Notes under the pieces: generated by a model
Seen by the model: the letters and a program-made list of their open reading frames with translations, nothing else
What the model was told of the DNA's origin: nothing
The model's database searches: none
Program-made: the position numbers and the translations under genes
Assembly: GCA_964016885.1 (NCBI GenBank)
Contig: OZ024740.1
Location: forward strand, 167,896,001 to 167,960,000
Direction: 5' to 3'
Source: Eledone cirrhosa
Lineage: Eukaryota
Length of the DNA stretch: 64,000 nt
Shown: one piece after another, positions 1 through 40,747 of the stretch
How the letters are laid out: each line of letters begins with the position of its first letter
Position numbering within the stretch: the first letter of the stretch is position 1

Positions 1-955
<955 letters not shown>

Positions 956-1523
956 TACTTGGGGAGGGTCATATTTGCGTAATATTGCCAGAATTAATAA
1001 CAGAACACACTCACTGTTTGGTTGGTTTTCGCTTCTCGCTGTCTTTTATTATATCTGCGATCTAACTTACTCGGTCCTCAATGTTGCCATTGACTGACCG
1101 GCGGTCAAAAATAATACAGATACAATATAGACACAAACACATATATATATATATAGTTTACATAATTTACATAAATCTTTCGTTGCACATCTGCAACATC
1201 GTCAGTGGTGTTATATTCATTGTTCCTCCTGTTGTGTTGTATGTCTACGCCATTTTTTTTTTTTTGTTCAGTCTGTCTATATATTTATTTATTTATTTGC
1301 TTGTTTGTTTATCTTATTTTATTTTGTCTTCTTTGCGCATGCGTTTGCGGGTGTCTATAGTGTTATGTGTGATGTGTGACTAGTGTGTATAGTGTTGTGT
1401 CTGCTGGGTGACTAGTGTGTGTTTATGTGCTTGTTGTTATTGTGCTTGTGTATGTATTTATTTATCTTATTTTATTTAATTTTATTTACTTAAAAGGGTA
1501 GGTTTTGCTGATCAGGTTAGGTT

Positions 1524-2000
1524 TTGCTGATCAGGGTAGGTTTTGCCACCATAAAATCCCTGATCAGCAAAACCTACCCTTTTAAGAAAACCCACTGTAC
1601 CAATAGGAAGTGTGTCATATGTAAGGTGAACCCCCGGATAATCTGTAAAACTAGAAACGTAGTCTATAGCATAAGATGTACAGAGGGTACTTGCAGAAAC
1701 ATGACAACAACATACATAGGTGAGACAGCTCGTAGCATAGGTGAAAGGATAGACCAACACTGGGGGGAACTAAAAGGACGAAAAAACGGGTCAGTACTAT
1801 ACGAACATGCTAGACAACAACATGACGGTAACATAGACAACATAGAAATTAGAATAATATCTAAACATAGGAATGACCCAGCAGATAGGCAAATCAGAGA
1901 GGCCAGTGAAATAGAAATTAGAAGACCAAAGCTAAACAGAAAGAATGAGTGGAACAACAACAACACCCAAACAAACAACACTGACCTAAGAGAAGTATAA
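1524..2000 (+). CDS. GIY-YIG endonuclease domain (C-terminal part of a PLE ORF, RT missing)
   Basis: Motifs CTNRKCVIC, NVVYSIRC..C, YIGETARSIGERIDQH, SVLYEH...H and RQIREASEIEIRRPKLN match the PLE GIY-YIG layout. The TTG start lies in the scrambled junction, so it is probably not a real start. Confidence 0.88.
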   Translation: MLIRVGFATIKSLISKTYPFKKTHCTNRKCVICKVNPRIICKTRNVVYSIRCTEGTCRNMTTTYIGETARSIGERIDQHWGELKGRKNGSVLYEHARQQHDGNIDNIEIRIISKHRNDPADRQIREASEIEIRRPKLNRKNEWNNNNTQTNNTDLREV

Positions 2001-2283
2001 ATAAGTAAATAAAATTAAATAAAATAAGATAAATAAATACATACACAAGCACAATAACAACAAGCACATAAACACACACTAGTCACCCAGCAGACACAAC
2101 ACTATACACACTAGTCACACATCACACATAACACTATACACACACGCAAACGCATGCGCAAAGAAGACAAAATAAAATAAGATAAACAAACAAGCAAATA
2201 AATAAATAAATATATAGACAGACTGAACAAAAAAAAAAAAATGGCGTAGACATACAACACAACAGGAGGAACAATGAATATAA

Positions 2284-2325
2284 CACCACTGACGATGTTG
2301 CAGATGTGCAACGAAAGATTTATGT
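2284..2325 (+). ncRNA. Hammerhead-like motif in the PLE terminal repeat (mirror copy at ~1169-1210 on -)
   Basis: CTGACGA-t-GTTGCA-gatg-TGCAAC-GAAA gives a 6-bp stem II. Stems I and III are weak. Confidence 0.55.
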
Positions 2326-2585
2326 AAATTATGTAAACTATATATATATATATGTGTTTGTGTCTATATTGTATCTGTATTATTTTTGACCGCCGGTCAG
2401 TCAATGGCAACATTGAGGACCGAGTAAGTTAGATCGCAGATATAATAAAAGACAGCGAGAAGCGAAAACCAACCAAACAGTGAGTGTGTTCTGTTATTAA
2501 TTCTGGCAATATTACGCAAATATGACCCTCCCCAAGTATAACAATATCTGTTTCGACACACGATTTCATATAAAAAACCTCGCAA

Positions 2586-2633
<48 letters not shown>

Positions 2634-3499
2634 TGAGTATATGAAAGCATATGCGACATGTTAAAATATAATAAACATACGAGTCTTACTGAACATGTCA
2701 CAGATATCTCAGTAGAAAAGGACTCTAGTTTACTACAACGAGTCATTCAGATGAATAATGGTAACGATAGACCAAATAGCGAATGTATTACCCCGAGATT
2801 AGGACGATATGATGAAAGAGCCTTTTCATCTTGTGGCGTTGGTTTTTCCCGATAGTCATTTATATCCCAATCGAACTAAATATAAGGTGATTGTGGATTC
2901 CCGGGACTATGGATGATTCCATTGCTGTAGTGTTAGAGAGAAACCAATCTCAAGGCAGTTTGTACTTTGTCTGTTTGTGATCCTCCATGATATTTCTTAG
3001 ATAATTACTTCATTTATTAGTTAACTGATTGGTTAGCGAGATGCTTCACCAGCTGGTCTGCTGTTAGAATAGAAGGCTTTCTTTTTAATGTTATTAGCTA
3101 TTCTGGTGGTGTTAAGGACGGTGATTTTGCTGATAATGAGAAGTTTTGGCAATGAGGAGGAGGAACGAGAAGGAGGGGTGGATCGTAGTGGTTGTATTTG
3201 GGGTGATAGTGATGGTGATGATGATATGGTGTGAGAGGAGGAGGAAGATGGCGGCGATTTATGATGGTGATGATAGTGAAGATGGTGGTGATGATGATAA
3301 TCACCTTTGTGCTGCTATTACTGATGGTGTGGATGATGATGGTGATGATGGTGATGATGCAAGAAGGCCATTAAACACTTTTGCCTGTCATTTTCCTTGA
3401 CAAATTGGTGAATCTTTCCCTAATACCAGCCGCCACTTTCCACCAATTTCAATATACCTCCTCTTAGTTGTTCCTTCTTTTATTCCATTTACATTTTTC

Positions 3500-3558
<59 letters not shown>

Positions 3559-3900
3559 CGGTGGTGGTGGTGGTAATAGTGTTGTTGTTTATGGTGGTAG
3601 TGGTGGTTTTGGTGGTGATCGTGGTGGCGGTGGGTTGGAATGGCGGCGGCGGAGGTTGTAGAAGGGGTTGTGGTAGAAGAAGAAGAAGAAGAAGAAGAAG
3701 AAGAAGAAGAAGAAGAAGAAGAAGAAGAAGAAGAAGAAGAAGAAGAAGAAGAAGAAGAAGAAGAAGAAGAAGGAGGAGGAGGTGATGATGATGATGATGA
3801 TGATGATGTTTTGATATTGTGTTTATTCTCTCACTCCATCCTCCTTCTCGTACCCCCTCTCTCTCTCTCTCTCTCTCTCTCTCAATCTCTCTCTCTCTGC
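3500..3900. repeat. Compound microsatellite (AGT)n/(GGT)n/(GAA)n/(GAT)n/(CT)n
   Basis: Direct reading. Confidence 0.95.
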
Positions 3901-4089
3901 CTATTTTCCAATGCATTCACTTGACACCATCACCCTTCAGATCGGATTCAAGATAAATGAACCAGTATCACCTTATTATATACAACATATGTATGATGAA
4001 TACTGAAAACACATTTACCAAGTGCTGCTGCTGTTGTTGTTGTTGCTACTGCTGCTTATTCTCCTAGAGTATCTGTCGCTATTATTGTT

Positions 4090-4270
4090 GTTATTGTTGT
4101 TAACCTCAGTCCTTATTGAGCAAACCTATGATCAAAGGGGTTCCAGCCATTTTCAACCCGTCTTTTTATATATATTTTTATTATCCACATTATCCCTTTG
4201 AAGGCAGTTGGTGTGATCTAAGGAAATTTGACTGCTATTTCTAGCAGATTTAGTGATAACGTAGAGGTTT
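4090..4270 (-). mobile_element. Degenerate copy of a second SINE-like family with an (AAC)n tail
   Basis: Shares ctagaaatagcag(c/t)caaat and tttgatcatagg motifs with 4700-4910, 4935-5110, 5850-6010, 7275-7430 and 16360-16500. Confidence 0.5.
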
Positions 4271-4699
4271 TTATTATGGGTTCCTGTTGTCGTAAATATA
4301 GTTAGTTGCTTTGCACGTTTGGTTGTTCGTGCGTTTGCGTATGTTTCTTTGTATTTGTGTGTGGGGTGTGTGTGTGGAGGGGATGACTGAGAACTGTAGG
4401 GTGTGGTGATGTTGCCTGGAGATAATGAGATAAAATAGATATAATCTTGCGTGACGATCTTTCTGTCTTCATTGCCACGCTTAAAAGTTCAGCCAATCAC
4501 CTCTACCATCGCCATCACAATCACTCTCAACCCATCACAAGGCAAAAAAAGCAAATAAACCAGCCAAACGCCAACACCACCACCACGTCCATCACCACCT
4601 CTGCCAGCGCCATCACTGTGACCTGCATTAGTGCCAGATACGGCACCAAAACTAAACTGCGCACCATCACGTTTGGACTGATGCGCGACTTCCTCTGCA

Positions 4700-6245: not shown

Positions 6246-6460
6246 CCGGTGGATTGCCAGTATCGGTAGAAGGTCGCACACCATGCTTTGCAGCATAGAC
6301 CTACGCCATGCTTTGCAGCATAGACCTACGGCCCTTTACAGTCTGAGTTCAATTCCTGCCGAGGTTAATTTTGCCTTTCATCCTTACGGGGTCGATAAAA
6401 TAAAGTACCAGTAATGCTCTGGGGTAACTGCTGGCTTTGTGCCAAATGTAGAAACAATTA
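6246..6460 (+). mobile_element. tRNA-head SINE with Deu/Nin-like core, 20-bp TSD and a 25-bp internal duplication
   Basis: A-box-like head, B-box-like gagttcaattcc and core gcctttcatccttacggggtcgataaaataaagtacca. The TSD attattttaaacactcaatg is at 6226-6245 and 6457-6476. Confidence 0.88.
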
Positions 6461-6729
6461 TTTTAAACACTCAATGGGCTTTGTCGTCTGTTATAGATAT
6501 TCTGTGTATCTGCACTTGGAAACGTCCTCTCTAAAACATAGGCCTGCGCAAAGTTGTCGTAGAAAAGCTGATGTTGCCCATTCATGCAAGTCTCCTTTAT
6601 TTAATCCACTGCTGTTGTCCAAAGAGAAAAGCAATGGCTGATACAACTTGGTATCAGTTTCGTCGCAAAAGTTGCTATCAGAACTCAAATAGTTGAAAGC
6701 AACACCATGATGCATTTCATCTGAAACAC

Positions 6730-9420: not shown

Positions 9421-9861
9421 TAATTAGCTTATGTTATTTCAAATTACATAGTGTTGCTGCCATTGATGTTGTTATTGTTAATGTTCTCATCATTTTTTCG
9501 ATTTTTTCATGTTGAAATGCAGGTGGTGCAGTATGTATGTAGCGTGCAATCTTTTCATACATGAATGCATGCATATTTATTTAAATCGATCACAACATAT
9601 GCGAGTAAATTCAATTTCTAAGGGACACCAATATTATTATTATCAGAACAACTTCTATCACCATCATTATTATTACTGCCTTCAACATCGTCCTCGTTAT
9701 CAGCGGAAGATCATTGAAATTGTCATATTGATATAATAATGAATTAATTAAAATGTACTACTAACTCTTCTGTTCGAACTGATGCTGTCTGTAATGCTGT
9801 TATACGTTAACACCATTACCATCATTACCATTACCACAAAACATTCTATATTATTTTATCT

Positions 9862-10041
9862 GCAGTATCGGTAGAGGGTTGGATGCCATGCTTTGACGCA
9901 TAGAGTTACGGCCCTTGCCATTCTGAGTTCAAATCCCGCCGAGGTTAACTTTGCCTTTCATCCTTACGGGGTCGATAAAATAAAGTACTAGTAATGCACT
10001 AGGTAATTGCTGGCCTTGTGCCGAAAGAAGAAACAATTATT
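9862..10041 (+). mobile_element. Deu/Nin-like SINE
   Basis: gagttcaaatcccgccgagg B box plus core; attattttat on both flanks. Confidence 0.88.
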
Positions 10042-10311
10042 TTATATATATAACGTTATATATATATATTCATATATATGTAATCACAGTGAAAGAGCTA
10101 CTGTATTTTAATTAATTCATTATATCCATGTGTCAATATCAATGACAATCCAATAACATTGGTGAAGATTGTTCTGCAGATGAAAATATTGATAATGTGG
10201 ACTGTAAAACCTCCTTTGCTTGCTTCTTTTAGATTATATCTGCGTGTGCGTGTTTGTGTGTGTGTATTTGTGTATATCTGTGTCTGTCTGTATGTGTGTG
10301 TGTGTGTGTGG

Positions 10312-11784: not shown

Positions 11785-12010
11785 AAGGGTGGTGAATTGG
11801 CAGTATTGATAGAGCGTCGGACACCATGCTTTGAAGCAAAGAGTTACGCCTCAGTTACGATCTGATTTCAAATCCCGCCGAGGTTAACTTTGCCTTTCAT
11901 CTTTACGGGGCCGATAAAATAAAATACCAGTAACACACTGGGGTCGATTGAATCGACTTTCCCCTCCCCCAAATTACTGGCCTTGTGCCTATAGTAGAAA
12001 TCATTATTAT
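11785..12010 (+). mobile_element. Deu/Nin-like SINE (long form with the ggggtcgatt..atcgac segment)
   Basis: Same head and core, (att)n tail. Confidence 0.88.
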
Positions 12011-12429: not shown

Positions 12430-13090
12430 ATTTATGTTATCCAGACTTAGACCGAAGATGGTCTATATTCCCCATTCCTCTTCCTTTAGCCTGGCTCATC
12501 ACATCCCCTACACACTAACGCAACCAATTTACCGGTTAAATCCATATGACCCTCCTAAACACGGCACTAATTACTTAACTAATGGACCACACCACCCACC
12601 ACTAATACATCTAACTCCCGTCTACCTCCACTCACCGCCGCTTTACCACCAATACACACACAACCACACCCAAGACACACCTAAACCCTCCACTTCGGCT
12701 ATTACCCCGAACCTTCTTAACAACCTTTTCCAAACGTTCATGTATCTACCTGTTCTCTCCCTATCCGAACTCACCATTTCCTGACGAAGGGCCTCCCTCC
12801 GAAGCGCAGAACCCTCCTCCACTTCCCCCCAAGCGTGATCCGAATACGACTTTGTGTTTTTACATCCCTGTGCTTGTTTTGTTTCATTTATTCAACTATT
12901 TATATATATATTTAACCTGATTAGTTCTTTCGTTACTTTGGTATTGTAGGGTTGGGTTTTGCCTACCGCAATTTTCCATTTGTCACGCTATTTAAACGTA
13001 TGTTATTACACTAAGGACCTCCCTTATTGAGTGCTTTGCTACTCATTCCTTATTATAGGTCGACTTTACTTAGCCACTCCAAAGCTTCGA
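12430..13090 (+). mobile_element. Probable decayed PLE 3' end with a degenerate hammerhead-like motif at 12778-12811
   Basis: ttc-CTGACGA-a-gg..cc-GAA-gcgc-a-gaa; the region ends in (TA)n. Confidence 0.4.
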
Positions 13091-13996
13091 TTTTACTAAG
13101 CTTCCACTTATATATATATATGATGAGTGAAAGTGAGAGGGAAAAAGGGAGAGGAAGAAAGAGGGGTAAGCGTAGATAGTAACGAAATAGGTAGGTAGAA
13201 GGAGAGAGAAGACTGGTCACAGTGAAACATGATAAAATATATGGAGAATAGGATTGGCTGTGTAGTTGCTAGTTAAGGTAGCTTAAACTGGAGTGAGAAT
13301 AAGAAGAAAGCAAGAACAATGGGGGGAGTTTTCCTCATCAGTTGTCTACTAGGGGTTTCGGATAGTTCTCTCTCTCTTCTCTCTCTATATATATATATAT
13401 GTATAGAGAGAGAGGGGGAGAGGAGAGAGTTGAACATATATATATAGTTGAACAAATAAAACAATATATATATATATATCCGTACCATGGACATCACCCT
13501 TACCGGTGCACTATTAGAAGCAGTAATATCACCATGACTGTGCAATACCACCCCCAATACCATTAACCTCATCATGATGATCATATGTTTGTAATCATTG
13601 GTGTGACAACCCAAATTACTATCATCATATATGGAAACCAAATCCATCCGCTATCAGTACTACTACAACTACCGCCAGCTTGTTTCTTTGATGTTGTCTT
13701 CGGTAATTCTTCAGTAATAAAACATCTTCTGCAGGAAATGAAATACCTGCTCTTTCTTCCCTGTATGGCGTACTTAACGCTACATCAGCTTGTCAGAATG
13801 TTTGACGTTTCAAATCTGAGCAGGAAAAAACTTTGTACTATTTGGTGCACCTAATTTTTACGATTTTTTTTCTAATATAGATGAAGCTACATACATAGAC
13901 TGAGACACAGACACACACATACATACATACATGCATACATAAATACATAAATACATACATAAATACATACTTAAATACATACATATATATATATAT

Positions 13997-14270
<274 letters not shown>

Positions 14271-14891: not shown

Positions 14892-15600
14892 CTAGCTGAG
14901 GAACCCGGTAATACCCGGGAGCAGGGATATTCCCAGTTCCCATTAAAATGCCCAATGCCTCTCAGACAAAATATGAAAGCAAAATATAGGACAGATTAGC
15001 AAATGCTAATGAGATTACCCTTAATAAGATGTGTGTTTATATAGTTAGGCTTAGCATGAGAATGAACTATCGATTATTTTCAGCAAGCAACGGTGTAAAG
15101 TTTAGAATCGATAATCTTTGTTGCAGGTGGTGAGAAAATAAATGTTATAGCAAGCAGAGAATATTAAGTTGATTTATAGAGAACATTTTAAGCCCACAAC
15201 AGCTAGAGCTAAATTTCGCTCATCAGTTAATCAAAAATCAGCTTACGTTTTGCTCGATTGGTCTGGATAACTTTCCTTAACAACAAGTCATCCTTAACAC
15301 ATAATCTATCTGTTTCATGTTTGAAGGAAATCGGTTAAGAGCTTTAAAAGTTATGGCAGAAAATAACATTCATATGAGCATTTGCATACAAATTTCCTAT
15401 TCATTTTTTTTTAAATCGATGCAGACTGGAAATTATCGATTCTTTTAGCTTCAAAGTACGTAAGAAATCAAATGGGCATGAGCCCCACACACGTGTCAAG
15501 TTTCATCAAGATTGGTTTAGTAGTTTTTGAGTTTTATGTTCACAAACAATTCCACAAACAAACACACAAACAGACAGAAATTGCCATTTATGTATATAGA
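14892..15600 (-). mobile_element. Non-autonomous Helitron
   Basis: On the - strand: 5'-TC at 15600, 3'-CTAG at 14895-14892, subterminal hairpin CCCGG(g)tatt(a)CCGGG, A|T target site and no TSD. Confidence 0.85.
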
Positions 15601-16149
15601 TAAGTCTACGAGAGATATTCGTGAAAACATTTTTTACCTTATAAAAAAACAAAGTATTCAGACAGATAACGTTTGAATTGTTCAGGGGTGCAACTCGGGA
15701 AATATTTATCGTTATTTATTCCAGATATTTAAACTGCATCCCATTTAGGAGGCGTGGAGGATATCAATAATTAAACTTGTGGAGCGAGGCAGAAAGACTA
15801 GTTGTTAGTAATGTGACAGTAAAAACTTCTTGGGGGCTTCCTTCCAAGACAAAACAAAATGGGAAAAAAAGAAAAATAGTGGCGTACATCTAAAGCAACA
15901 CATCAACAGTATGCTCCAAATAGGAGTACAACAACTACTGCCAGTACTGATTCCAGAATGCCATCAGTCACAGCTCCGAATATAATTAGATCAAAAGCAA
16001 ATGAAATTGCCTTATACTTAATGACACCAGCAGCAAAAATCTGAAATGTCATGAAGGAATACGAACCACCAAAACATAGAAGGAAAAAACTATTTCTTAA
16101 AGGTTGGATAGATATTGCAAACGTGTACATCACCCCCATTATTTATTAC

Positions 16150-16340
16150 CGCTGTGGATTGGCAGTATTGGTAGAGTGTCGGACGCCGTACTTTGCAGCA
16201 TTGAGTTACGGCTTTTTACGGTCTGAGTTCAAATCCCGTCGAGGTTAACTTTGCCTTTCATCCTTACGGAGTCGATAAAATAAAGTACCAGTAATGCACT
16301 GGGCTAATTGCTGGCCTTGTGTCAAAAGTAGAAACAATTA
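16150..16340 (+). mobile_element. Deu/Nin-like SINE with TSD attatttattaccg
   Basis: Head, core and flanking direct repeat at 16138 and 16337. Confidence 0.9.
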
Positions 16341-16696
16341 TTTATTACCGTCGGGCCAATGAAGGGATTCTGTAGGTCAGTTGGTGCAAAATAATGAGCA
16401 ATTTCCTTCAAACTACACCCTAACGTCTTAGTAAAGAAAGAACACAGTGAACATTATAGCTATATATAAAATATAAGGTCATCAATGTTGGAAACTTTTA
16501 ATTATAGAACTCGATATGCAGTAGCTGATTTTGTATAGACATGTATAAAATTAGCTGCATCTGCAGATATTCCGTTTTACACGTCTACTTTCCTGTCTAT
16601 TAGCCGGAGATATAGTCCTTCGGCAAGTGATGCATACAATCGTTCACTGCCCGAGTATTGTTGACTCGGGCAGTTCTGTTAAACAATTATTGTCGC

Positions 16697-16870: not shown

Positions 16871-18036
16871 ACAAGCGAAATTTCATAATTTCAACCTCGG
16901 CAAAAAGATATTTTAATTTGTCCGTCTCGTAAATTTCACTCTTCCCATGACAATAGATATAACATTGCTTTCAGTTTTTAAAGTTTTGACGTCTGTGGAC
17001 AGATTAACCGTCTGTTTCTTTAATAGACTGGGGAGTGTTTTATAACTAAAGATTCGTATAATTCTTCTTGAAAATAGATGAGATATGAACAGTGAAATTT
17101 TTCGCTTTTTTTCCTATCTAAAAAAGATATTTTGCTACTTTCTTTAAGTTCTATTTGTAATTATTTCCTTGTTTCGTTTTCATCTCATCAAAGGTCCTAA
17201 ATACATGAAGGAGAGGGATGACTCTACGGCATTATCTTTATTTGCTTATTCAAACAAAAATTCGATGTGACGTTGCTAAACAAAAACCAACACTGCAAAA
17301 TAAGATAATGAAAACAATCATCATCATTGGCGTCATCATCATCGCTATACTGATCATCATCATCCTCATAATCATCATCAATATGATCACCACCACCAAT
17401 GGAGTAACTCAAGCGTGGCTTCATATTTCCCACAATGCGATATACAAATTGGCTAGAGCCTCTTTTTGTACTTCTGAAGGCGTTGGACAGCAATTTCTTT
17501 GTTTCTTCTTTCCTTCCTGTTATTTCTTTCTTATATATTTTTTCCATTTATAAATCTTCTTCGTCTCTTTTTCCAAGCTACTTCTCTGATTCACGCCTCT
17601 GTCGTGTTCTTTATTTATTTCTATTATTTTTTATCTTTCCTTCTTAGTCTAACTACTTCATACAACTATTTTTATATATTTACAAGTGATAGATCAACAT
17701 TCTCTAGTGTTGCGAGTGAAGTGAATGTAATGGTGAATAATGAAACAAAGTTTTGAAGTAACATGTGATGTTTTGGTGGGCGCCAACTTAAAAGATATTT
17801 TATTAATGAAAACAGTCTTAACATATCCTTTTGATCACCGTTTCTTATTATTTCGTTTACATTTGTTTCGCTCTAAGACGTTCAGCATTCCGTAATAGAA
17901 GAACGAAAAACAGCACACAAATGAAATTAGAGATTCCGTATCTTGATGGCGACAACTCGTAACAAAAAAGACAAATTCCTACGAATAATTGTAAATCACA
18001 CTAAACACTTATTATTACATATTGTTGAACAAACAA

Positions 18037-18216
18037 TAATTGTTTCTACTTTTGGCACAAGGCCAGCACTTATCCCAGTGTATTACTGGTACTTTATTTT
18101 ATCGACTCCGTAAGGATGAAAGGCAAAGTTAACCTCGGCGGGATTTGAACTCAGACCATAAAGGGCCGTAACTCTATGCGTCAAAGCATGGCGTCCGACC
18201 CTCTACCGATACTGCC
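18037..18216 (-). mobile_element. Deu/Nin-like SINE
   Basis: Reverse-complement head and core; aaacaataat on both flanks. Confidence 0.9.
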
Positions 18217-18315
18217 AAGAAACAATAATGGCTGGAAGTGTGAAGCCTTCAGAAAAAGAGGAGAAAATATGTTTTTACACTTTAGAAACCCAATCAAGAG
18301 AAAATTGAAGACGCA

Positions 18316-24932: not shown

Positions 24933-25872
24933 TTGTTACATAATAAGGTTATGTTTCCGAGGCAATCCAAGTTGAATCGACAAGGGAACGGACGAAGTGT
25001 GTGCTTTTGGGTTCTTCATCCGTTCCCCTGTGAATACCAATTCACCCCCACCGGTCTGCGCAGGCGCATGTCCGAAGGAAGTTGACCATTAGCCACCGCA
25101 GATTTCAACGAAATTCGCTTTGTCAGTTCACCCTCTCAGCCAAACAATGACCCATTTAGGCCTGTACCATAGTTTACTGCTACCCATCCCATCTGTGGCA
25201 GTCAGCCGAAAGCCAGAGGGGATGGGAGAGTGTTAGTTTTTACAGGTCACAATACTACCTCTCACCAAGCGTGGACAGTACGACTGACCATCAACTCCCA
25301 AGAGAAAATATACTTAATTCTAGGTACCATGGTTTTACATTGGAAGTTATGAGTGAGAGTTGGAAATAAAAATGAAAATCCTAAATCAAAAATTATAAAT
25401 TAAACAATTAAAAAATTAACAATTAGAAATTAAAAATTTTTCAAGTGAGAATCCGGATTGAGGTGAGTAAAAAAACATATAGATTGAAGTGAGTAAATCA
25501 TATGGAGAGAGATGTTTAAGTAAGAAGTTCTGAGAGGGGTTCCAATGTCACAGTTAACAATATCTACATATTGAACGATAGTGCCGTACATTAGAACGGA
25601 GGGTAAACTACAGTATTCATGGCAGTAGTCAATCTGGTACACAGTCATAATTTCCATCACATGGAACAAAACCAAAGAAAAACAGTACACAAAAGAAAAG
25701 AACCAATAATGAATAAATGCAAAAACACAGAGTACATATATGCAAAATGATCCATATGATTGTCAATTTGTCCATGTATAGATTGAATTGAGGGGGCTTC
25801 TGTTCAAAAGCGATTTGGTGCGGGAAAATATGGGTGTATATATATATATATATATATATATACAGTACATAC

Positions 25873-25932
<60 letters not shown>

Positions 25933-26242
25933 ATGTACTGTAAATATATACACACACACATATATATGTATGTATGTATCTTTGTCTTTATGTATATACA
26001 TAATGCGCATAATAAACAACATAAGCAGGAAAAGGTAGACGAGTGAAAAGTGCGGAAGTGAGGAGTAAAATAATTAATTAAAACACGAATTAGAGAGACA
26101 AACGAGGAAAATTGTGAAATGAGAGAAAATGGGTAATAACAAAAGTAAAAATAATGATTTAATTAATTTCTCCTGACTACGAAGAAAAGTTAGGTAAATT
26201 TTGTCTGTTTTGTTTCATTTATTAACTACATATATAATTTTT

Positions 26243-27040
26243 AAAAAAGTGTTTCGCTCTACATGGCTGAATACAACAATTGTAATCTGAGTTTTTCGAA
26301 TATCAACAACAACATTCGACTCGTTTGCAATTATGTAAACAAGCTTCATTTTAAAAGCCATGTCACTATGATGAACCCCTGATTCTTGATCTTGTGTTGG
26401 CATGCAAACAGAACTGCAGACACTAATGTTTCTGGGTATTACCCTTCATCAGTACAGTTCACTGTTCACCTGCCAACTGTCAGAGCTAGTGAAAATATAT
26501 ATTTTCTAAAATACAAATAAATTATCGAGAATCGGAATTTCGGCCCACGAAATAACGAAACACAATCTTCGAGGTGCGTGGCAAAGGGCTCAATAGTTTG
26601 GATAAACCAGAGCTATAACTATCGTTTAAATACCAACACACGGAGACAATGCTTAAAATCATTCGCACAGCCGAAAAAAACGACCAGGAAAATTCGGGTC
26701 AGACAAATAATAATATAAATGAATGAAAAATCTTTTCTAAAATATACAGTCACTGATCCGCCTGATTTGTATATTAGCAGACCCACTGATCAGCCAGATT
26801 TGCATATCAGCAGACTAGCCAGTTAGTTTCCTGTATACGAGCAATCAATGGCCGGCTTTGCCACATACAAGTAAAAAAAAATGTTCGCTCTACATGGCTG
26901 AATACAAGAATGAGGTGCTCATTCTACTGACATGGCTTTAAAATGAGGTTTGTTTGCATAATTGCAAACGAGTCGAATGTTGTTGTTGATATTATAAAAT
27001 CTCAGATTACATTTGTTGTATTCAGCCATGTAGAGCGGAA
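26243..27040 (-). mobile_element. ~631-bp terminally redundant hammerhead-bearing unit with an inverted 5' end
   Basis: cgctctacatggctgaatacaa is a direct repeat at 26255 and 26886; 26253-26365 is inverted at 26928-27040; (TA)n follows. Confidence 0.75.
26411..26460 (-). ncRNA. Type I hammerhead ribozyme, canonical GUC site
   Basis: gaactgta-CTGATGA-a-gggt-aat-accc-a-GAAA-ca-ttag-tg-TC-tgcagttc. Stem I has 8 bp, stem II 4 bp and stem III 3 bp. Confidence 0.87.
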
Positions 27041-27116
27041 ATTGTATATATATATATATATATATATATAGGAAAAGAGTCAGGAAACCGACGGCTGAGC
27101 TCCGGCCGTTTCTTTT

Positions 27117-27161
<45 letters not shown>

Positions 27162-27272
27162 TGGATTGATAGATAAGATTAGATAGAAGAGCATAAGATG
27201 TAAAATAGGAATAACTAAACGAACAAGTAGTAGTAGTAGTAGTAGTAGTAGTAGGAGGAGGAGGAGGAGTTA

Positions 27273-27329
<57 letters not shown>

Positions 27330-27769
27330 CAGTTGTTGTTCTTGTTGTATGGATGTGATGCAGGATGTGGACGGGAAGAGGGGTGGCTGGGGAGAAGAAG
27401 GAGAAAGATATTGGTATCTAAAGTAGCGTCACGCCATTTCTATCTTGATCCCTTACTGTCAAAATTGATCGATAATAGGGGGTTGTAACCTTGAATAACA
27501 TACCCGAGCTAGAAACTTGAATATTCATGGGGGTCATGCTATGTCGGGTCTATGAACAGGCCCTTCGGGACGCTGCAGGGTTAAGGTTGTCCCTCAGAAG
27601 AGGTGGTAATCTGAAGGGTAAGAGAAAGGCGACTAAGCATCACCAGCGTGACCCTTTTCTCTGCAGAATAAAAAGACATTCATTATTATAACTCTTGATA
27701 AGGGCGATATGTTGGCAAAGCTGATAAAGAACTATATTAAATGCATTACAGAATTTGCTGTAGTTCCAC

Positions 27770-27975
<206 letters not shown>

Positions 27976-29059
27976 TATATATATATGGAGAGAGTTAATT
28001 ATATCATATATAATATAATATAATTTAAAGAAAATGACATGAAAATAAAGATAAACATCTATCTATCTCTCTATATATATACGTGTGTGTGCGCGTGCGT
28101 GTGTGTATGGACGTATGTGTGTGGACGTGGACGTGTGTGTACGCGTATGTGTGAGTGCGTGTGTGTATATATCTGCATATATTCATTTTATTAAGGCAAT
28201 GATAGCCATGCAATAAACAGGCGAAACTCCAAAGTAACAAGACTCACTATTTAGCCTTAATAAAATGAATATCAAAACTCTACTTCGGTATTGAGTACTC
28301 CTTTCTCTTAGCCGTCAACCACATACGGATATATATATATATGTGTGTGTGTGAGGGCGTGTATGTGTGTGTGTGTGTGTATGTGTGTGTTGTTAGAAAT
28401 CCGTAAATGAAAAATCAAGAGCCCAGTCATGGCCACTACTGTATATTGGAGGAGGCAAGGCTGGCTTTAACTTTGTTTGTTGACTTAATTGTTCAAAATG
28501 TCTAGGGTTTTTTATCTACTCTAGTAGCCAAGGGATGCGACTCTTAAAACCGACTCCCCCTCTCTCTCTCTCCCCATTGGTAAAAATTTATAAAATTTGA
28601 AACCAGAAGAACTTACATACTTACATTGCAGCGGAAATTCCCAATATCCCTCTTCACTTTAGTAAAACTAAATTATCAAAGTAAGCAATGCTCTAGTCAT
28701 AAATACAGTATGCCTGAATAAAAGATATGATAGTGTCTCTGTTAGAACACCTTTATAATCATGTCTGCTCAATTATCTTCCAATCATGTTCAGTCAATAA
28801 AATAATAATTACCATATCTTTTTCCTTGATTCAATCAACGTTTTTACAGTTTAGATGGGTATAAATTTCGTGGGGAGGTGGAGTGGAGAGAGTATCTTCA
28901 AACTGGGGGTCTGTCGCCAATGCTTGCAACAGAGTGCAATTCGTTAAAGTTAGCAAAGCGTTATATGGTGGCGTTAAACCGCGTGGCGGATTAAGTCAAC
29001 CATCTAAGTGTACCATGACGAGTTTGGAATTCAGAATGCAAAGGACCAGAACATATACC

Positions 29060-29240
29060 ACAAAACATCCTGATCGACTTTTTGATAATTCCGCCAGTTT
29101 ACCAGCCAGGAATCAAACTTTATTCATTGACCACTCACTGATGAATAGCAAAGTTGATATTGGTAGGATTTGAACTCAGAACGTAAGAAGCTGGAATAAA
29201 TGCAGCAAGGTATTTTGTTCTACGCTCGAACAACTCGCCG
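29060..29240 (-). mobile_element. Older SINE subfamily, degenerate
   Basis: aaagttga...ggatttgaactcagaacgta, as at 6730-6900. Confidence 0.6.
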
Positions 29241-29248
29241 TCATTATT

Positions 29249-30101
29249 AGCGGTGAATTGGCAGTATCGGTAGAGGGTCGGACGCCATGCTTTCCAGCAT
29301 AGTTACGTCCCTTTACGATCTGAGTTCAAATCCCGCCGAGGTTGATTTGCCTTTCATCCTTACGGGGTCGATAAAATAAAGTACCAGTAATGCACTGGGT
29401 AATTGCTGGCCTTGTGCCTAAAGTAGAAACAATTATTAGCGGTGGATTGGCAGTATCGGTAGAGAGTCGGACCCCATGCTTTCCAGCATAGTTACGTCCA
29501 TTTGTGGTCTGAGTTCAAATCCCGCCGAGGTTCACTTTGCCTTTCATCCTTACGGGGATCGAGAAAATAAAGTACCAGTAATGTACTGGGTAATTGCTGG
29601 CCTTGTGCCAAAAGTAGAAACAATTATTACCAGGTCTTGCGAGGGCGGGGAACTGGCAGTATCAATAGAGGGTCGGGCGCCATACTTTGCAGCATAGAGT
29701 TGCGGTTCTTTATGATCTGAGTTCAAATCCTGCCGGTGTTAACTTTGCTTTTCATACTTACGGGGTCAATAAAATAAAAGTACCAGTCACGAACTGGGGT
29801 CGATTTAATCGACTTTCCTCTCCTCCAAAAAATGTCTGGCCTTGTGCCTCTCTAACAATCCATTATTATCAGATCTTGCGAGAGCGAGGAATTGGCAGTA
29901 CCGGTGGAGAGTCGGACACGTGTTTTGCAGCATAGAATTACGGTCCTTTACGGTCTAAGTTCAAATCCCGCCGAGGTTAACTTTGCCTTTCATCCTTACG
30001 AGGGTCGATAAAATAAAGTACCAGTAACGTACTGGGGTCGATTTAATCGACGTCCCCTCGCCCCAAATTACTGGCCTTGTGCCTATACTAGAAATCATTA
30101 T
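29249..30101 (+). mobile_element. Four head-to-tail Deu/Nin-like SINEs (starts ~29249, 29438, 29640, 29880)
   Basis: Four repeats of tggcagta..gg/gttcaaatcc/core/ggccttgtgcc. Confidence 0.92.
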
Positions 30102-31289
30102 TGTCAGATCTTGTTCTTAAAGCCGGTTTGGATCTAAGAAACAACAACACTGCCTTTCGTCCCTCTGGTATCAATAAAATAACTATTAGCATATATTTAT
30201 GGTGGTTCAATAAAATCTGTCCGTTCAAATTCGAATTTTAACATCAATGTAATAGAATTCATTAATGCTCTTCCTTAGATAGATCATATAGTATATTATT
30301 GAACCGCAAAGCATCATTCGGTTTCATTTATCTCGTAACTTAAGCTCAAATACCACTAGCATTTAACATTGATTTTCATAATATATAAGAGGATAATCAA
30401 TCATACCTACCATTCGTCTACAAACTAATTAGTCATGAGTTTCAATAGACAGGAGCCAATCAATTGTGATTTATGAACTTGAAATAACTTTTGGGGTTGT
30501 TCAAACTTTGAAGGTGGTGAATGCCTTAGAATATTTATTCCGGCTCTTTGTACTTTGAGTTCAAACCCGGCTGATCTCAACTTGGCCTTTACTCCTACAA
30601 GGGTTGATAAATGAAGTTGATGGCCAACAATTCACCTTCAAATTGTAGAGGTGGTTGATGCATAACAGTGTGGTCAAGAAGTTTGCTTAACACCACATAG
30701 TGTTCGATCCCATTGCCATCAAATATAAATTCAGCTTGGCCAATAACTTGTGAGGAGAATTTAGTAAACAGGTGTGAGGAGTCCTACCATATACAGGTGT
30801 ATTTGTGTGTCTGTGTGCTTATATACCACCTAGACTGGTGTGTAGAGTCTGTCGCTCTCTTCCGTTGTACTTTCTTTATTTAATTTTTATTGTCTCCATT
30901 TCTATTTTTTAATGTTATTCCAAGCTGAGCAAATCCAGTCAAGATCTAAGTTTGAAAAGTAGCGATTTTTCCTGATCCTTCAGCGAAATTCAAACATATC
31001 TATATATTAATTTCAACAATGTCAGTATTCTATTCCGTGTGTCATAATTCTCGATTATCATTGATTCATAGGTTTCAAACGACTCCGCCCACCTCAACGA
31101 CGCCAAACTTAAATTAATATGCATAATGCCAATGAGGAAGTGAGAGGGGAGAGTAAGAAACAGAGAGGTAAAGTGAACGCTGTAACTATTAGCATCTGCG
31201 CGTGTGTATGTATGTGCGTGTATGGTTATGTGTGCGTGCGTGCGTGCAGCGTTCCACAGAAAGTAAAAGCAATTCGACTTTATCAAACA

Positions 31290-31490
31290 GTGAACTACAG
31301 CGGCGACGGCGTGTAGCCAGGAATGAAGAAAAACGGGTCGAACATCGCCATCGGAACGCCGAACTTCAGAGGCGAAGACGTGCCGCCATGAATGAAGAGG
31401 AGCTGGCTGAACAACGCCAACGAAACACTGGAACCAAGCAGCGACGGCGTGCTGCGATGGTTGAAGACGAACTAGCTGAGCATCATCTTT
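31290..31490 (+). pseudogene. Helitron RepHel N-terminal charged repeats
   Basis: Three ~23-aa repeats (ELQRRRRAAMNEEELAEQRQRN), of the kind seen at the start of animal RepHel ORFs. Confidence 0.6.
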
Positions 31491-31677
31491 TATATTAATT
31501 AACTATATCTATATCTACATATAATATAAAAGATTGGAACTTCCATCATCCTTTTGAGAAACGTGGAACAACCACGTCTATGCAATGATACAGTCAGGTA
31601 TCATGCAAGATACTATACAATGATACGTTTTACAGTCAGGCAGAAGATGAACCATCTCCTAGAGGTCACTATTTTAG

Positions 31678-31755
31678 ATGGGAGCACCTAGAATTGTTCA
31701 TATACTATGCACAAACGGTACAGCGAAGAATCTGGTATATCTGGAAGATTTTTTT
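31678..31755 (+). pseudogene. Helitron Pif1-like helicase extreme C-terminus
   Basis: GAPRIVHILCTNGTAKNLVYLE resembles the (SRV)G.P..L.I...NG.TKNIVY.E terminus of RepHel. Confidence 0.65.
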
Positions 31756-31892
31756 TACTGTTTTTTGTATCATAAAGACACCACGGAGTCGCCTCATACT
31801 GTAACCAGACAAACATCCAATACAGTCATTTTCTCTTTTACCTGTCTTCTCTTATCATCTGTTTACCCGGGCGAAGCTGGGTACGCCAGCTA

Positions 31893-31953
<61 letters not shown>

Positions 31954-31997
31954 TATGTGTGTGTGTGTGTGCGTGTGTGTGTGTAAATATATATTGT

Positions 31998-32262
31998 ATA
32001 AAATTTCATACACTAAACATGTTCGTGCGACCATTGGTTTTGGGGTCCAGTTATGGCCACCACTGTATATTAGACGAGGCTCTTCCAAACTGACCCCACA
32101 TTGAGAACGAGGACAAATATACGTATATTTGTTTTTTCGTATATTTGTCCTCGAGCCCGATAAGAGGTAGTTCAGAAGAGCCTCCTCCAATGTACAGTGG
32201 TGACTATAACTGGACCCCGATACCAATAGTCGTGCATACATGTTAAGTGTATGTAATTTTAT
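31998..32262. mobile_element. MITE-like fold-back element
   Basis: ~90-bp imperfect inverted arms plus an inner 16-bp stem (cgaggacaaatatacg/cgtatatttgtcctcg). A related arm fragment lies at ~28423-28456. Confidence 0.75.
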
Positions 32263-32366
32263 TTATACTAAATAAGCTCTCTTGCCATGGATTGAGCACT
32301 GTTCTCCTTGACCTTCCATCTACGGATATTCTGCATAGACCCACACACACATATACACACACACAC

Positions 32367-32415
<49 letters not shown>

Positions 32416-32484
32416 ATCAAGGTTTAGCAAATAAGAAAAAGTTTCAAAATAAATTTCAAAAGATTCACTGTACTCACTATGGTT

Positions 32485-32571
32485 ACCATTACCGAATCGG
32501 TTTCGAGTCTCAAAAATAAATGGACAGTCCTTGCGGCCTTCCATTGAAAAGATAAACTCTCGTCAGAAGGT
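32485..32571 (-). ncRNA. Type I hammerhead ribozyme
   Basis: acctt-CTGACGA-gagtt..gactc-GAAA-ccga-t-tcgg-TA-atggt. GUA triplet; stem I has one mismatch. Confidence 0.78.
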
Positions 32572-32682
32572 TCTTTTCACTCGGAGAATATAAAATTCCC
32601 GAGTTCAAATTACGAACTGGCGCTATTCAAAATTGTTCCCGAGATGAGAAGGAATGATGTGGAAGCAATTCTGTCCAGTGCC

Positions 32683-32751
<69 letters not shown>

Positions 32752-32801
32752 AGTATGTATGTATACGTACATACATATATGTATACAGGCGTACAGTAGC
32801 A

Positions 32802-32884
<83 letters not shown>

Positions 32885-33043
32885 GCATACAGGTACACAT
32901 ACATATATGCACGCATCAGTTTAGCCGACGTTTATTATAACGCAGCTTTGTTCGCTTGTTTGTCAACAAAGCGAACAGCCTGAATTTATGCCATACGGTG
33001 TTAAGGCAACCACGTCACCTTTTTGTTCAACACTGACACAGGG

Positions 33044-33086
33044 ACGTTGTACTAGTTTCAAGCTTGTTAGCTATCATCAGCACCGT
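33044..33086 (-). ncRNA. Minimal type I hammerhead (copy 1)
   Basis: acggtg-CTGATGA-t-agct-aaca-agct-t-GAAA-ctag-TA-caacgt, with palindromic stem III ACTAGT. Confidence 0.82.
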
Positions 33087-33324
33087 TTACCCATCTGCCA
33101 GATAGTTGAACGTTCGAAAGTATATACTTTCCTTATGAAAATTAACGGCTGAGCAGCCTAATTTACATATTGAGTGAGTTAAATCGGTCAGACATACCGA
33201 AAACGACAAGTTGAAAAGAAAAATGAAAACGAAATTTCATTTCTCACTCTTAGTATGGCACTTACTTAAATGTAAGTATGTATGTATACGTACATACATA
33301 TATGTATACAGACGTACAGTAGCA

Positions 33325-33397
<73 letters not shown>

Positions 33398-33556
33398 GCA
33401 TACAGGTACACATACATATATGCACGCATCAGTTTAGCCGACGTTTATTATAACGCAGCTTTGTTCGCTTATTTGTCAACAAAGCGAACAGCCTGAATTT
33501 ATGCCATACGGTGTTAAGGCAACCACGTCACCTTTTTGTTCAACACTGACACAGGG

Positions 33557-33599
33557 ACGTTGTACTTGTTTCAAGCGTGTTAGCTATCATCAGCACCGT
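33557..33599 (-). ncRNA. Minimal type I hammerhead (copy 2, two substitutions)
   Basis: Stem III is ACAAGT (palindrome broken) and stem II is agc/gct. Confidence 0.65.
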
Positions 33600-33837
33600 T
33601 TACCCATCTGCCAGATAGTTGAACGTTCGAAAGTATATACTTTCCTTATGAAAATTAACGGCTGAGCAGCCTAATTTACATATTGAGTGAGTTAAATCGG
33701 TCAGACATACCGAAAACGACAAGTTGAAAAAAAAAATGAAAACGAAATTTCATTTCTCACTCTTAGTATGGCACTTACTTAAATGTAAGTATGTATGTAT
33801 ACGTACATACATATATGTATACAGACGTACAGTAGCA

Positions 33838-33922
<85 letters not shown>

Positions 33923-34080
33923 GCATACAGGTACACATACATATATGCACGCATCAGTTTAGCCGACGTTTATTATAACGCAGCTTTGTTCGCTTATTTG
34001 TCAACAAAGCGAACAGCCTGAATTTATGCCATACGGTGTTAAGGCAACCACGTCACCTTTTTGTTCAACACTGACACAGG

Positions 34081-34125
34081 AACGATGTACTAGTTTCAAG
34101 CTTGTTAGCTATCATCAGCACCGTT
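34081..34125 (-). ncRNA. Minimal type I hammerhead (copy 3, best paired)
   Basis: Stem I aacggtg/catcgtt is fully paired (one G-U). Confidence 0.85.
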
Positions 34126-34869
34126 TACCCATCTGCCAGATAGTTGAACGTTCGAAAGTATATACTTTCCTTATGAAAATTAACGGCTGAGCAGCCTAAT
34201 TTGCATATTGAGTGAGTTAAATCGGTCAGGCATACCGAAAACGACAAGTTGAAAAAAAAAAATGAAAACGAAATTTCATTTCTCACTCTTAGTATGGCAC
34301 TTACTTAAATGTAAGTATGTATGTATACGTACATACATATATGTATACATACATACTTACATTTAAGTAAGTGCCATACTAAGAGTGAGAAATGAAATTT
34401 CGTTTTCATTTTTTTTTCAACTTATATATATATATATATATATATATGCGTGTATGTGTGTTTGCATTTCGGTAAAGTATTAGCAAAACCAGCACTCTTC
34501 TAATTTAAGCATTCACTGGATTTTTTTCTGCACTTATAAAGATGAAAAAAGGAAATAAGGAGGTGAGGGGCTGCGCCCTGCGGACAAAATGACGACAATA
34601 TTGATACGAAGAAGAGCTGCATCTACCACTCCAGTTCAGGGTTCTTCCTCATGTAGGATGCGCTCCTCCCCGTTTTGCGGAGGAAAACGGCACTTCGAGG
34701 TCTCGCCATTAAGGTGCAGGAAAAGAAAGCAGTCGTTCAAGAATATATTTAACGAGAAATGAACGTAGTCATTATTTAAATTATGTAAACATAAGAAATA
34801 ATTAATCATAAAATAGGTAAATACGCTACTGATTTTATAATTATTATTCATAATATTTGATATTTCCTT

Positions 34870-35161: not shown

Positions 35162-35246
<85 letters not shown>

Positions 35247-35249
<3 letters not shown>

Positions 35250-35456
35250 GGAACGAGTAGGACCCCGACGGCTGAGCTCAAGCCGTTTCGACAGCTAATT
35301 CTGGACTAAAACGTTTTAGTCCAGAATTAGCCGTCGAAACGGCTTGAGCTCAGCCGTCGGAGTCCTACTCGTTCCTATTACCCACTCTACTACCCTAAGT
35401 ATTGAGTACTTTGGTGCGTTATGGTCCACCTGGTTCCTTACCACATTTCCTTCGTT
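35247..35456 (+). mobile_element. Hairpin-plus-tail repeat: 132-bp loopless palindrome plus ~80-bp tail, in (TA)n
   Basis: 35247-35378 is self-complementary about aaaacgtttt with 2 mismatches. Confidence 0.88.
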
Positions 35457-35482
35457 TTATATATATATATATATATATATAT

Positions 35483-35678
35483 CAGATTGGAGGCGGTAAA
35501 AACCAGTTAGACCATTTCTCACCAGAGTACTCGATACTTGGGGTAGTAGAGTGGGTAATATGAAAAAGATTCAGGACCCGACGGCTGAGCTCCGGTCGTT
35601 TCAACAGCTAGATCCGAACTCCCATCTAGCTGCTGAATCAGCCGGAGCTCAGCCACCGGGTCTTAAATTTTTCTCACA
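35483..35678 (-). mobile_element. Diverged member of the hairpin-plus-tail family
   Basis: Tail gagtactc.atactt.gggtagtagagtgggtaata, then hairpin gacccgacggctgagctcc..agctagat/atctagct..ggagctcagcc..cgggtc. Confidence 0.8.
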
Positions 35679-35793
35679 TATATATATATATTTGTATAAG
35701 GTGTAGAATAACCGAGCTTTGTATGCAACACTCCAATCAGTAAACGATCTTGCCTATTAGATTTACGCACTCAACGACATGCGTACGTGTTTA

Positions 35794-39631: not shown

Positions 39632-40010
39632 AGGGCGGTGGGTTGGCAGTACCGGTAGATAGTCGGACACCATGCTTTGCAGCATAGAGTTACCACCCTT
39701 TTTGGTCTGAGTTCAAATCCCGCCGTGGTTAATTTGCCATTCATCGTTACGGGGTCGATAAATAAAGCACCAGTAACGTGCTTGGGTCGATTTAATTACT
39801 GCATTTGTGCCTATACTAGAAATCATTGGTGAATTGGCAGTATCGGTAGAGGCTCGGACATGCTTTCCAGCATAATTACGTCCCTTTATGATCTGAGTTC
39901 AAATCCCGCCGAGGTTAACTTTGCCTTTCATCCATACGGGGTCGATAAAATAAAGTACCAGTAATGTACTGGGTGATTGCTGTCCTTGTGCCAAAAGTAG
40001 AAACAGTTAT
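39632..40010 (+). mobile_element. SINE dimer bounded by one 13-bp TSD
   Basis: Two copies (~39632 and ~39827); ttatttacactcc at 39617-39629 and 40007-40019. Confidence 0.87.
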
Positions 40011-40747
40011 TTACACTCCCCCGCACTCTCTTATTCTATTTTTTCTCGAATTAGCATCAGCACCTCACCACATCCCTTCTTTCATAACAATTTGTATCCA
40101 ATATTCTATTCTCTCACACAGTTGTAGTGCACCTGAGCACTGTACACGATAATTTCATTATTATGATCCTCCTTCCTCTTGTTACTCGCATTTACATGTA
40201 CTCTCTCTTTTTCGTACTTTCTCTTATTCTCCCTCTATATATCAACATTCTCTTCTCTCCTTCTCCTCTCTCTCTCTTTCTTCCTCTATCCCCCCTCTCT
40301 CTCTCTTCTTCTTCTTCTTCTTCTTATATCTATCTTTATTTTCTTCCTCTACATCTCTCTTACACTCCGTATGGCGATTATGGTGTGAGGCGTGACATTT
40401 TTTCAATGATTTATCTATTCTATTTCAGCCATAACCCTTGCTTTATCACACAAAGGAGCCTTAATCACTTAGAGCGATATATATATATATTAGACCTTAC
40501 TCCTTTCGTTTACCTCACCGCGCCTATACAAACATACGCACACACAAACAAATACATACAAACACGCAAACATATTCGCTTCTTTCGCAGCCAGCTGACC
40601 CAATCACGCCCTACCCTTTTTATTATCAACACCACCAGGACCAATAACACTATTACTACTGCTACTGCTACCCCTACTAGCACTACATACACAACAGTCT
40701 GCACCTATGACACCATCATCATCACTTCCACCCCCATCACAACAATA

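Follow-up and report, generated by a model that had tools for sequence, protein, structure and literature searches.

The window, a stretch of 64,000 nucleotides of AT-rich and microsatellite-rich animal DNA, contains between positions 26243 and 27043 a repeat element that carries a predicted hammerhead ribozyme, a pair of octamer-bearing repeats, an inserted second repeat and an inverted arm (Table 1), in a region with a GC content of 38% (26001–28000). The terminal direct repeat consists of 26243–26280 and 26874–26911, which are offset by 631 bp and 87% identical over 38 nt, as an earlier note on this DNA had described. The inverted copy of the end that was also reported there is present, with a length of 137 bp instead of ~113 bp: 26905–27040 is identical to 26252–26388 at 122 of 136 aligned positions, with one additional gap, and overlaps the direct copy of the end by 3 bp (26905–26907). 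An 8-bp hairpin (26907–26925, −8.2 kcal/mol) abuts the junction. The arm stops ~30 nt short of the predicted cut site of the ribozyme, and a one-sided tail of at most 9 nt remains outside the repeated part (forward end 26243, arm end equivalent to 26249–26252). The two arms differ at 15 of 137 positions, which is more divergence than one recent event would be expected to give and suggests either age or two source molecules. No target-site duplication is discernible at 26243–27043, and the left flank (26206–26244) itself belongs to another repeat, with 88% identity over 41 nt to 12875–12915 and a raised read depth. The unit has no open reading frame of 100 amino acids, the overlapping frames being microsatellite read-through only, and a reading frame for reverse transcriptase and GIY-YIG endonuclease was not found in the element. 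A coding relic starting at the AUG in the ribozyme was considered and rejected, as a stop follows after 8 codons.

Table 1 Features of the hammerhead repeat element and its right flank (positions in the window)
Feature	Position	Strand	Remarks
3′ part of the unit (pLTR-like)	26243–26513	−	TATA-like box 26495–26500, hammerhead, ~175-nt 3′ segment
U-run closing the 3′ segment	26243–26248	−	End of the unit's 3′ part
Predicted type I hammerhead with extended, UG-bulged helix I	26397–26477	−	Core 26411–26460
Left copy of 12-bp duplication	26502–26513	.	Flanks nested insertion
Nested 219-bp insertion, other high-copy repeat	26514–26732	+ (presumed orientation)	A-rich tail at right end
Right copy of 12-bp duplication	26733–26744	.	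Flanks nested insertion
Two 33-bp repeats with an octamer site each, candidate promoter module	26751–26815	−	87% identity
Spacer, upstream U-run to octamer repeats	26816–26872	−	Represented in all four runs
Redundant copy of the unit's 3′ end, including T9 run (26873–26881)	26873–26907	−	Remnant of preceding unit
Inverted 5′ arm, last ~137 nt of the unit in antisense	26905–27043	+	Joined via 3-bp overlap
(TA)13 flanking the arm	27045–27070	.	Likely target

Several other repeats occur in the window. A short hairpin-like repeat recurs within (TA)n at 27071–27120, near 282–341, and at 704–763, 13984–14122 and 35224–35679. A repeat family of ~190 bp, both dispersed and locally tandem, is found at 6303–6472, 9850–10044, 11786–12002 and 16143–16344, with further copies at 18035–18229, 29243–30113 and 39632–40018; none of these gave a match to the hammerhead descriptor. 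About 22 kb (~41000–63400) consists of strongly skewed ACC-rich repeats, which are not a telomere repeat and would read as a threonine-rich, mucin-like frame.

The best-formed ribozyme candidate has a stem I of 8 bp, including one G-U pair (26460–26453 with 26418–26411), which continues past a 2-nt UG bulge to 26477/26397, so that the proposal of an 8-bp stem extendable over a bulge is borne out. The conserved core (CUGANGA, GAAA, UH) is present, with CUGAUGA at 26452–26446 and GAAA at 26432–29; helix II is formed by GGGU/ACCC (26444–41 and 26437–34), and helix III has 3 bp and a UUAG loop. With a GUC triplet of which C17 is at 26419, the predicted cut lies between 26419 and 26418, all of this on the minus strand. 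The type I descriptor found this hammerhead as its only match in 1–41000, and in 2000 dinucleotide shuffles of the element it matched nine times with a 4-bp stem I and never with 8 bp. A minimal hammerhead-like core also lies at 15214–15226 and 15380 on the minus strand, ~150 nt downstream of an octamer, where the type I descriptor failed. The earlier description as a canonical GUC hammerhead is correct for the triplet and the core. It does not extend to helix II, where positions 10.1/11.1 are A·A (26445/26433), a mismatch that opens the helix base and leaves no closing pair. Nor do database models or the predicted fold agree with it: the Rfam hammerhead families gave no match at E ≤ 10 over 26200–27060 (eight unrelated weak hits), and the hammerhead is not the minimum-energy fold. 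For the window as a whole, the 150 of 158 Rfam matches listed were all driven by microsatellites and below the gathering score. The ribozyme pattern had no matches in metagenome, viral and prokaryote genome contigs, and the terminal 22-mer had none in metagenome contigs.

According to ViennaRNA, a non-catalytic hairpin of −16.4 kcal/mol is favoured over the hammerhead (−10.2 kcal/mol) by 6.2 kcal/mol, with the core pairing to helix III and the helix III pair probabilities being 0.0001. Since the program ignores tertiary contacts, this competing fold would make monomer cleavage less likely rather than impossible. In helix III, 10 nt (26429–26420) are self-complementary, with a predicted duplex energy of −8.8 kcal/mol. 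A double hammerhead formed in this way is predicted at −32.6 kcal/mol, compared to −32.8 for two misfolded monomers and −20.4 for two monomer hammerheads; the best predicted dimer fold, at −41.2, is also non-catalytic. Helix III and the bulged helix I would favour cleavage of the monomer, the A·A mismatch and the competing fold would oppose it, and we put the chance of efficient monomer cleavage at about one in three, with dimer cleavage at least as likely. Most invertebrate hammerheads with a stable helix III are described to cut well alone (PMC7229834, PMC7761336). The closest described case is the axolotl ribozyme HHR_Amex2, which likewise combines a short helix III and a tetraloop with a mismatch at the base of helix II; with U·U at that position, 22% of the monomer was reported to be cleaved within one hour, the dimer being far more active (PMC7229834). 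The ribozyme described here is a predicted one and differs in having A·A instead of U·U and a helix III of 3 bp.

The occurrence of related copies was investigated by comparing four of ten runs over 26005–27046, namely X1 (contigs) and X8 (raw RAD reads) from organism A, X4 from organism B and X6 from organism C; X2, X3, X5, X7, X9 and X10 were left out. Run X1 matches the left flank and the junction letter for letter at a depth of ~7 and perhaps represents the window's own sample, because of which it is not regarded as independent. Its summed contig depth is 252,316 over the ribozyme and 6.87 on the unique flank, which is not a copy number but a sign of very many copies of the family; at the unit end, the depth in X1 drops from 58,035 (26250–84) to 2,348 (26215–49). 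The read ends fit GCATGC and AATT cut sites, as judged from the sequence, and the RAD design makes some arms and some insert-bearing copies more visible than others.

A unit length of 631 bp, as originally proposed, is not that of the family. The family unit is ~400 bp, and the element is lengthened by a nested insertion of 231 bp, the 12-bp duplication included. The joint 26500>26733 is supported by 1,328 X8 reads from 23 different starts. Of the 46,574 X8 reads that could be placed, 17,567 begin at 26401 and 11,667 have loose ends behind 26500; in organism B (X4) the depth over 26530–26704 is zero. Most of the copies read thus miss the insertion. An AATT site at 26520 could keep insert-bearing fragments out of X8, and the X8 insert frequency is not to be read as a copy fraction. 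The skipped stretch is located between the two 12-bp copies and is A-rich at its right end, which leads us to interpret it as a 219-bp nested retro-insertion accompanied by the duplication. The insert itself is a CpG-rich high-copy repeat that is deep in X1 (5,049–116,310) and occurs in organisms A and C but not in B. A search of 25500–28000 with ARAGORN gave no tRNA, so the insert is not an obvious tRNA SINE. Neither the insert nor the 3′ segment has similarity to a second hammerhead family at 32909–34423 (their scores were reached by 218 and 844 of 1000 shuffles).

The 3′ end of the unit was also found joined head-to-tail to the upstream region of a next unit, in 72–81 X1 contigs, at 25–27 X8 starts, in four X4 contigs and in one X6 contig. 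A back-jump joint, 26863>26359, was covered by 125 reads and is the only such one among the 15 joints listed, and a complete multi-unit array of the ~400-bp family was not seen in the reads. Since the 3′ end runs straight into the upstream region of the next unit, the unit is circularly continuous, with no room for an open reading frame. This bears on the possibility that the locus is truncated, partly inverted pLTR debris of an autonomous PLE, in which case the ~400-bp unit would have no propagation of its own. Most PLE insertions are 5′-truncated, the geometry of the element is that described for PLE insertions (PMC8557442), retrozymes have been noted to resemble pLTRs (10.64898/2026.07.22.740005), and the long contigs of organism B (1,222–1,631 nt) align only in part. 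The head-to-tail junctions found in all four runs, together with the lack of a 100-amino-acid frame in the unit and the fact that the related family at 32909–34423 is an ORF-less trimer, make this explanation rather improbable, although it is the strongest of the three alternatives.

Among the 15 joints and 12 between-letter rows listed, six other inversion junctions were present, four as joints (26796>26915, 26802>26905, 26808>26907 and 26836>26919) and two between letters (26290/26814 and 26319/26484). Each has 63–114 reads; the four listed as joints have one start each, which fits single RAD loci but also amplified library chimeras between repeats. An apparent junction 26382/26919 was set aside as cross-mapping between the two arms. 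Both the arm length (about 39 to 137 nt) and the join point vary among copies. Four of these six junctions end at or in the 8-bp hairpin, as does the one at 26905–26907, although arms of this kind are the ones that a RAD design tends to pick up.

In organism B, the ribozyme reaches a depth of 27,286–33,465 and the octamer block one of 20,650, compared to 376–4,674 at the ends. The ribozyme and octamer blocks are thus conserved in a second organism while the ends diverge, which is the reverse of what is expected for a MITE. None of the 40 read differences listed alters a core nucleotide. The majority letters of the reads change loop II (26440), convert a stem I pair to G-U (26458), and replace a G-U pair by U-A in the extended stem (26405). 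The A·A at 10.1/11.1 also occurs in the loose ends of organism B, the consensus of which retains the core and helix III; in stem I, the 26456/26415 pair is G-C there instead of U-A, and the outermost two pairs no longer form (agreement 0.74–0.75; 33 and 51 contigs). Helix covariation thus amounts to one compensatory change and two pair-keeping majority changes (26458, 26405).

Five rare variants are common to both arms (26277/27015, 26304/26988, 26307/26985, 26310/26982 and 26320/26972) and would tie the arms to one source. On the RNA strand, each of the five is an A-to-G change preceded by U or A, as would be expected from A-to-I editing of a transcript that folds back on itself. Three of them lie in one trinucleotide run, and a single slippage event could explain these.

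A MITE with terminal inverted repeats of 137 bp that has captured a hammerhead repeat would account for arms that are 89% identical and have these rare variants in common, and for the (TA)n flank. It is hard to reconcile with arm ends that vary among copies, with ends that are the least conserved part in organism B, and with a third, direct copy of the end inside the element. Moreover, most reads over the inner end of the arm lead on into the ribozyme instead of across the 26905 junction (2,732 X8 loose ends before 26905). A MITE is thereby largely refuted and by far too improbable to be maintained, the least credible of all explanations considered. The variable arms and join points, the conserved ribozyme and the lack of a frame for reverse transcriptase and endonuclease sustain the original view of a non-autonomous element with Penelope-type geometry, for which variability of the arms among copies had been proposed as a check.

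The tandem duplicate of 33 bp noted earlier at ~26750–26815 was located at 26751–26815, with a perfect octamer at 26798–26805 and a second octamer with one mismatch at 26765–26772. A single octamer was rejected as evidence by itself, as it is present in 273 of 2000 shuffles. A C at 26770, which restores the second octamer, occurs in 9,529 of 9,999 X8 plus reads, in 5,767 of 6,817 for X1, in 2,534 of 4,107 for X4 and in all of X6, so that the majority letter gives both octamers in each of the four runs. The number of 33-bp repeats varies among copies. The family at 32909–34423, on the minus strand, has three head-to-tail units of ~513 bp and a 5′ inversion of its own, and aligns colinearly with the element in two blocks; the alignment scores were reached by 6 of 1000 shuffles for the octamer block and 4 of 1000 for the block from TATA-like box to ribozyme, values that are generous since the motifs that prompted the comparison lie within these blocks. 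Of the three units of that family, one has a perfect octamer. Both families have the order U-run, octamer, TATA-like box, ribozyme, U-run, and the spacing from octamer to core is 84 nt in the element when the insert is disregarded and 80 nt in the second family. Octamers, TATA-like box and U-run resemble the layout of U6/H1-type promoters, a snRNA-type architecture, and the newt satellite 2 promoter contains an octamer and a PSE. The conserved arrangement suggests that the module is a candidate built-in promoter of the snRNA type, as has been cited for newt satellite 2 (PMC2220036). The hammerhead of the second family has U·U at the base of helix II, a minimal palindromic helix III and a GUA triplet. 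With its tandem units this family fits the rule of two ribozymes for an active retrozyme, and it would be a better substrate for a dimer assay.

The geometry was originally proposed to copy that of an element at 952–2588, a young, 5′-truncated GIY-YIG-type element in (TA)n. The resemblance holds for the inversion at the same end, but not for the extent of the arm, the tail (46 nt versus at most 9 nt) or the sequence. The arms of 952–2588 differ at 2 of 541 positions and include its hammerhead-like motif, whereas the arm at 26905–27043 excludes the hammerhead. No sequence similarity between the two elements was detectable (scores reached by 144, 161 and 1000 of 1000 shuffles), and although they have a same-end inversion in common, the sequences do not show 952–2588 to be the partner of the element. 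The frame at 1521–1997 has GIY-YIG-like motifs when inspected by eye, and its look-alikes in the Atlas are eukaryotic (0.96–0.97), with GIY-YIG on 13–18% of the members in two clusters; a Pfam search of this frame gave no GIY-YIG hit and only DUF1758 at E 0.1. Furthermore, 952–2588 has an atypical hammerhead-like core at 2289 (plus strand) and 1205 (minus strand) and a tangled short-repeat junction at 1493–1580.

The occurrence of the same form of inversion in 952–2588 and in the family at 32909–34423 also speaks against the explanation that the element is a SINE-like hammerhead repeat mobilised by a LINE, with the inversion arising by twin priming or later rearrangement. Twin priming inverts an upstream segment, whereas both copies here begin at the same 3′ end. 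With the lack of a target-site duplication added, we consider this very improbable, even though the 3′ end at a homopolymer run and the 3-bp microhomology at the junction would suit it and schistosome hammerhead repeats have been called SINE-like (PMC6765202).

In our opinion the locus is likely to be one copy of a highly repeated, ORF-less hammerhead repeat of ~400 bp, an animal non-LTR retrozyme, that was probably inserted by a PLE reverse transcriptase-endonuclease and later probably interrupted by the 231-bp insertion. Animal non-LTR retrozymes (Cervera and de la Pena 2020, PMC7229834; Li et al. 2026, 10.64898/2026.07.22.740005) are alike in having a type I hammerhead, a low-GC, ORF-less unit of ~400 bp and a very high copy number. 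Units of 150–450 bp are reported (PMC7229834), and without its insertion the unit falls within the size and composition used for retrozymes (150–450 bp, GC below 50%, no ORF). Solo monomers occur, crustaceans and other invertebrates provide examples, and PLEs have been proposed as mobilisers (PMC7229834, 10.64898/2026.07.22.740005). The element differs in its 5′-inverted arm, since the main texts of these two reports describe none on retrozyme copies, and in the conserved octamer module of its family, since retrozymes seem to lack promoters according to a 2020 review (PMC7761336). Having one hammerhead, the locus falls outside the rule of the preprint that active retrozymes carry two (10.64898/2026.07.22.740005).

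Insertions of EN+ PLEs (PMC8557442; PAc, PMC11167929) share with the element the partial tandem, the inverted 5′-truncated copy and the hammerhead near the 3′ end, as well as an AT-rich or (TA)n target and no clear target-site duplication; partial tandems and inverted 5′-truncated copies are described as hallmarks of PLE insertion (PMC8557442). Differences are the lack of a frame for reverse transcriptase and endonuclease, a tail of at most 9 nt instead of 30–40 nt (optional in PLEs), and full helices instead of a minimal hammerhead. A promoter followed by a hammerhead in each tandem unit is known from newt satellite 2 (Pol II, snRNA-type; PMC2220036) and schistosome Sm-alpha (Pol III; PMC6765202), where the upstream unit drives the next; here, the octamers are duplicated and accompanied by a TATA-like box and a U-run.

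For the formation of such copies by the retrozyme route, the octamer/TATA module would drive transcription starting just upstream of the hammerhead, and read-through of tandem units would yield RNA with two hammerheads, which may cut weakly alone and better as a dimer via the self-complementary helix III. Cleavage would release RNA of unit length that includes the promoter of the following unit and could possibly circularise. The PLE protein would then cut the two strands of a target that is AT-rich or (TA)n, and at each of the two DNA ends reverse transcription may start close to the U-run that lies ~175 nt beyond the cut site. Work with a purified PLE protein is compatible with this: both strands of AT-rich DNA were cut and extended, and reverse transcription began at an internal RNA position downstream of the hammerhead, with no need for cleavage (PMC11167929). 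One cDNA would comprise the whole unit and a further 35 nt, running through an intact ribozyme, which a circular or uncleaved multimeric template would allow, as in an existing model for retrozymes (PMC7761336). The other would have stalled at the hairpin after ~137 nt, followed by head-to-head joining via the 3-bp microhomology. Because the copy at 26243–27043 has a single hammerhead and an insertion between octamers and TATA-like box, it is probably inactive itself.

A more far-reaching version can be offered tentatively, and we think it possible rather than likely: an invertebrate retrozyme lineage with its own compact U6/H1-type promoter (repeated octamers, TATA box and U-run terminator) would avoid the promoter loss that usually accompanies retrotransposition by means of a hammerhead-cut, circular read-through RNA that is copied by a PLE dimer from both DNA ends. 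The arms would then be the first footprint of PLEs mobilising retrozymes, and the five A-to-G changes would be A-to-I edits fixed by reverse transcription.

Non-LTR retrozymes and their solo monomers have been described already, as have a proposed origin from PLEs, mismatches in helix II and hammerhead satellites that carry promoters. In the literature covered, in part as excerpts, we found neither retrozyme copies with 5′ inversions nor invertebrate retrozymes with an octamer module reported; subscription papers, supplements and Repbase or Dfam may hold one. For annotation it is relevant that such copies resemble MITEs and escape Rfam. The mobiliser of animal retrozymes has so far been argued from co-occurrence and pLTR similarity, and variable same-end inversions on an ORF-less family would provide a mechanistic footprint of PLE integration. 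The ~400-bp family could serve directly as substrate in the in vitro PLE assay already published, and its conserved octamer module would test the view that animal retrozymes rely on read-through transcription.
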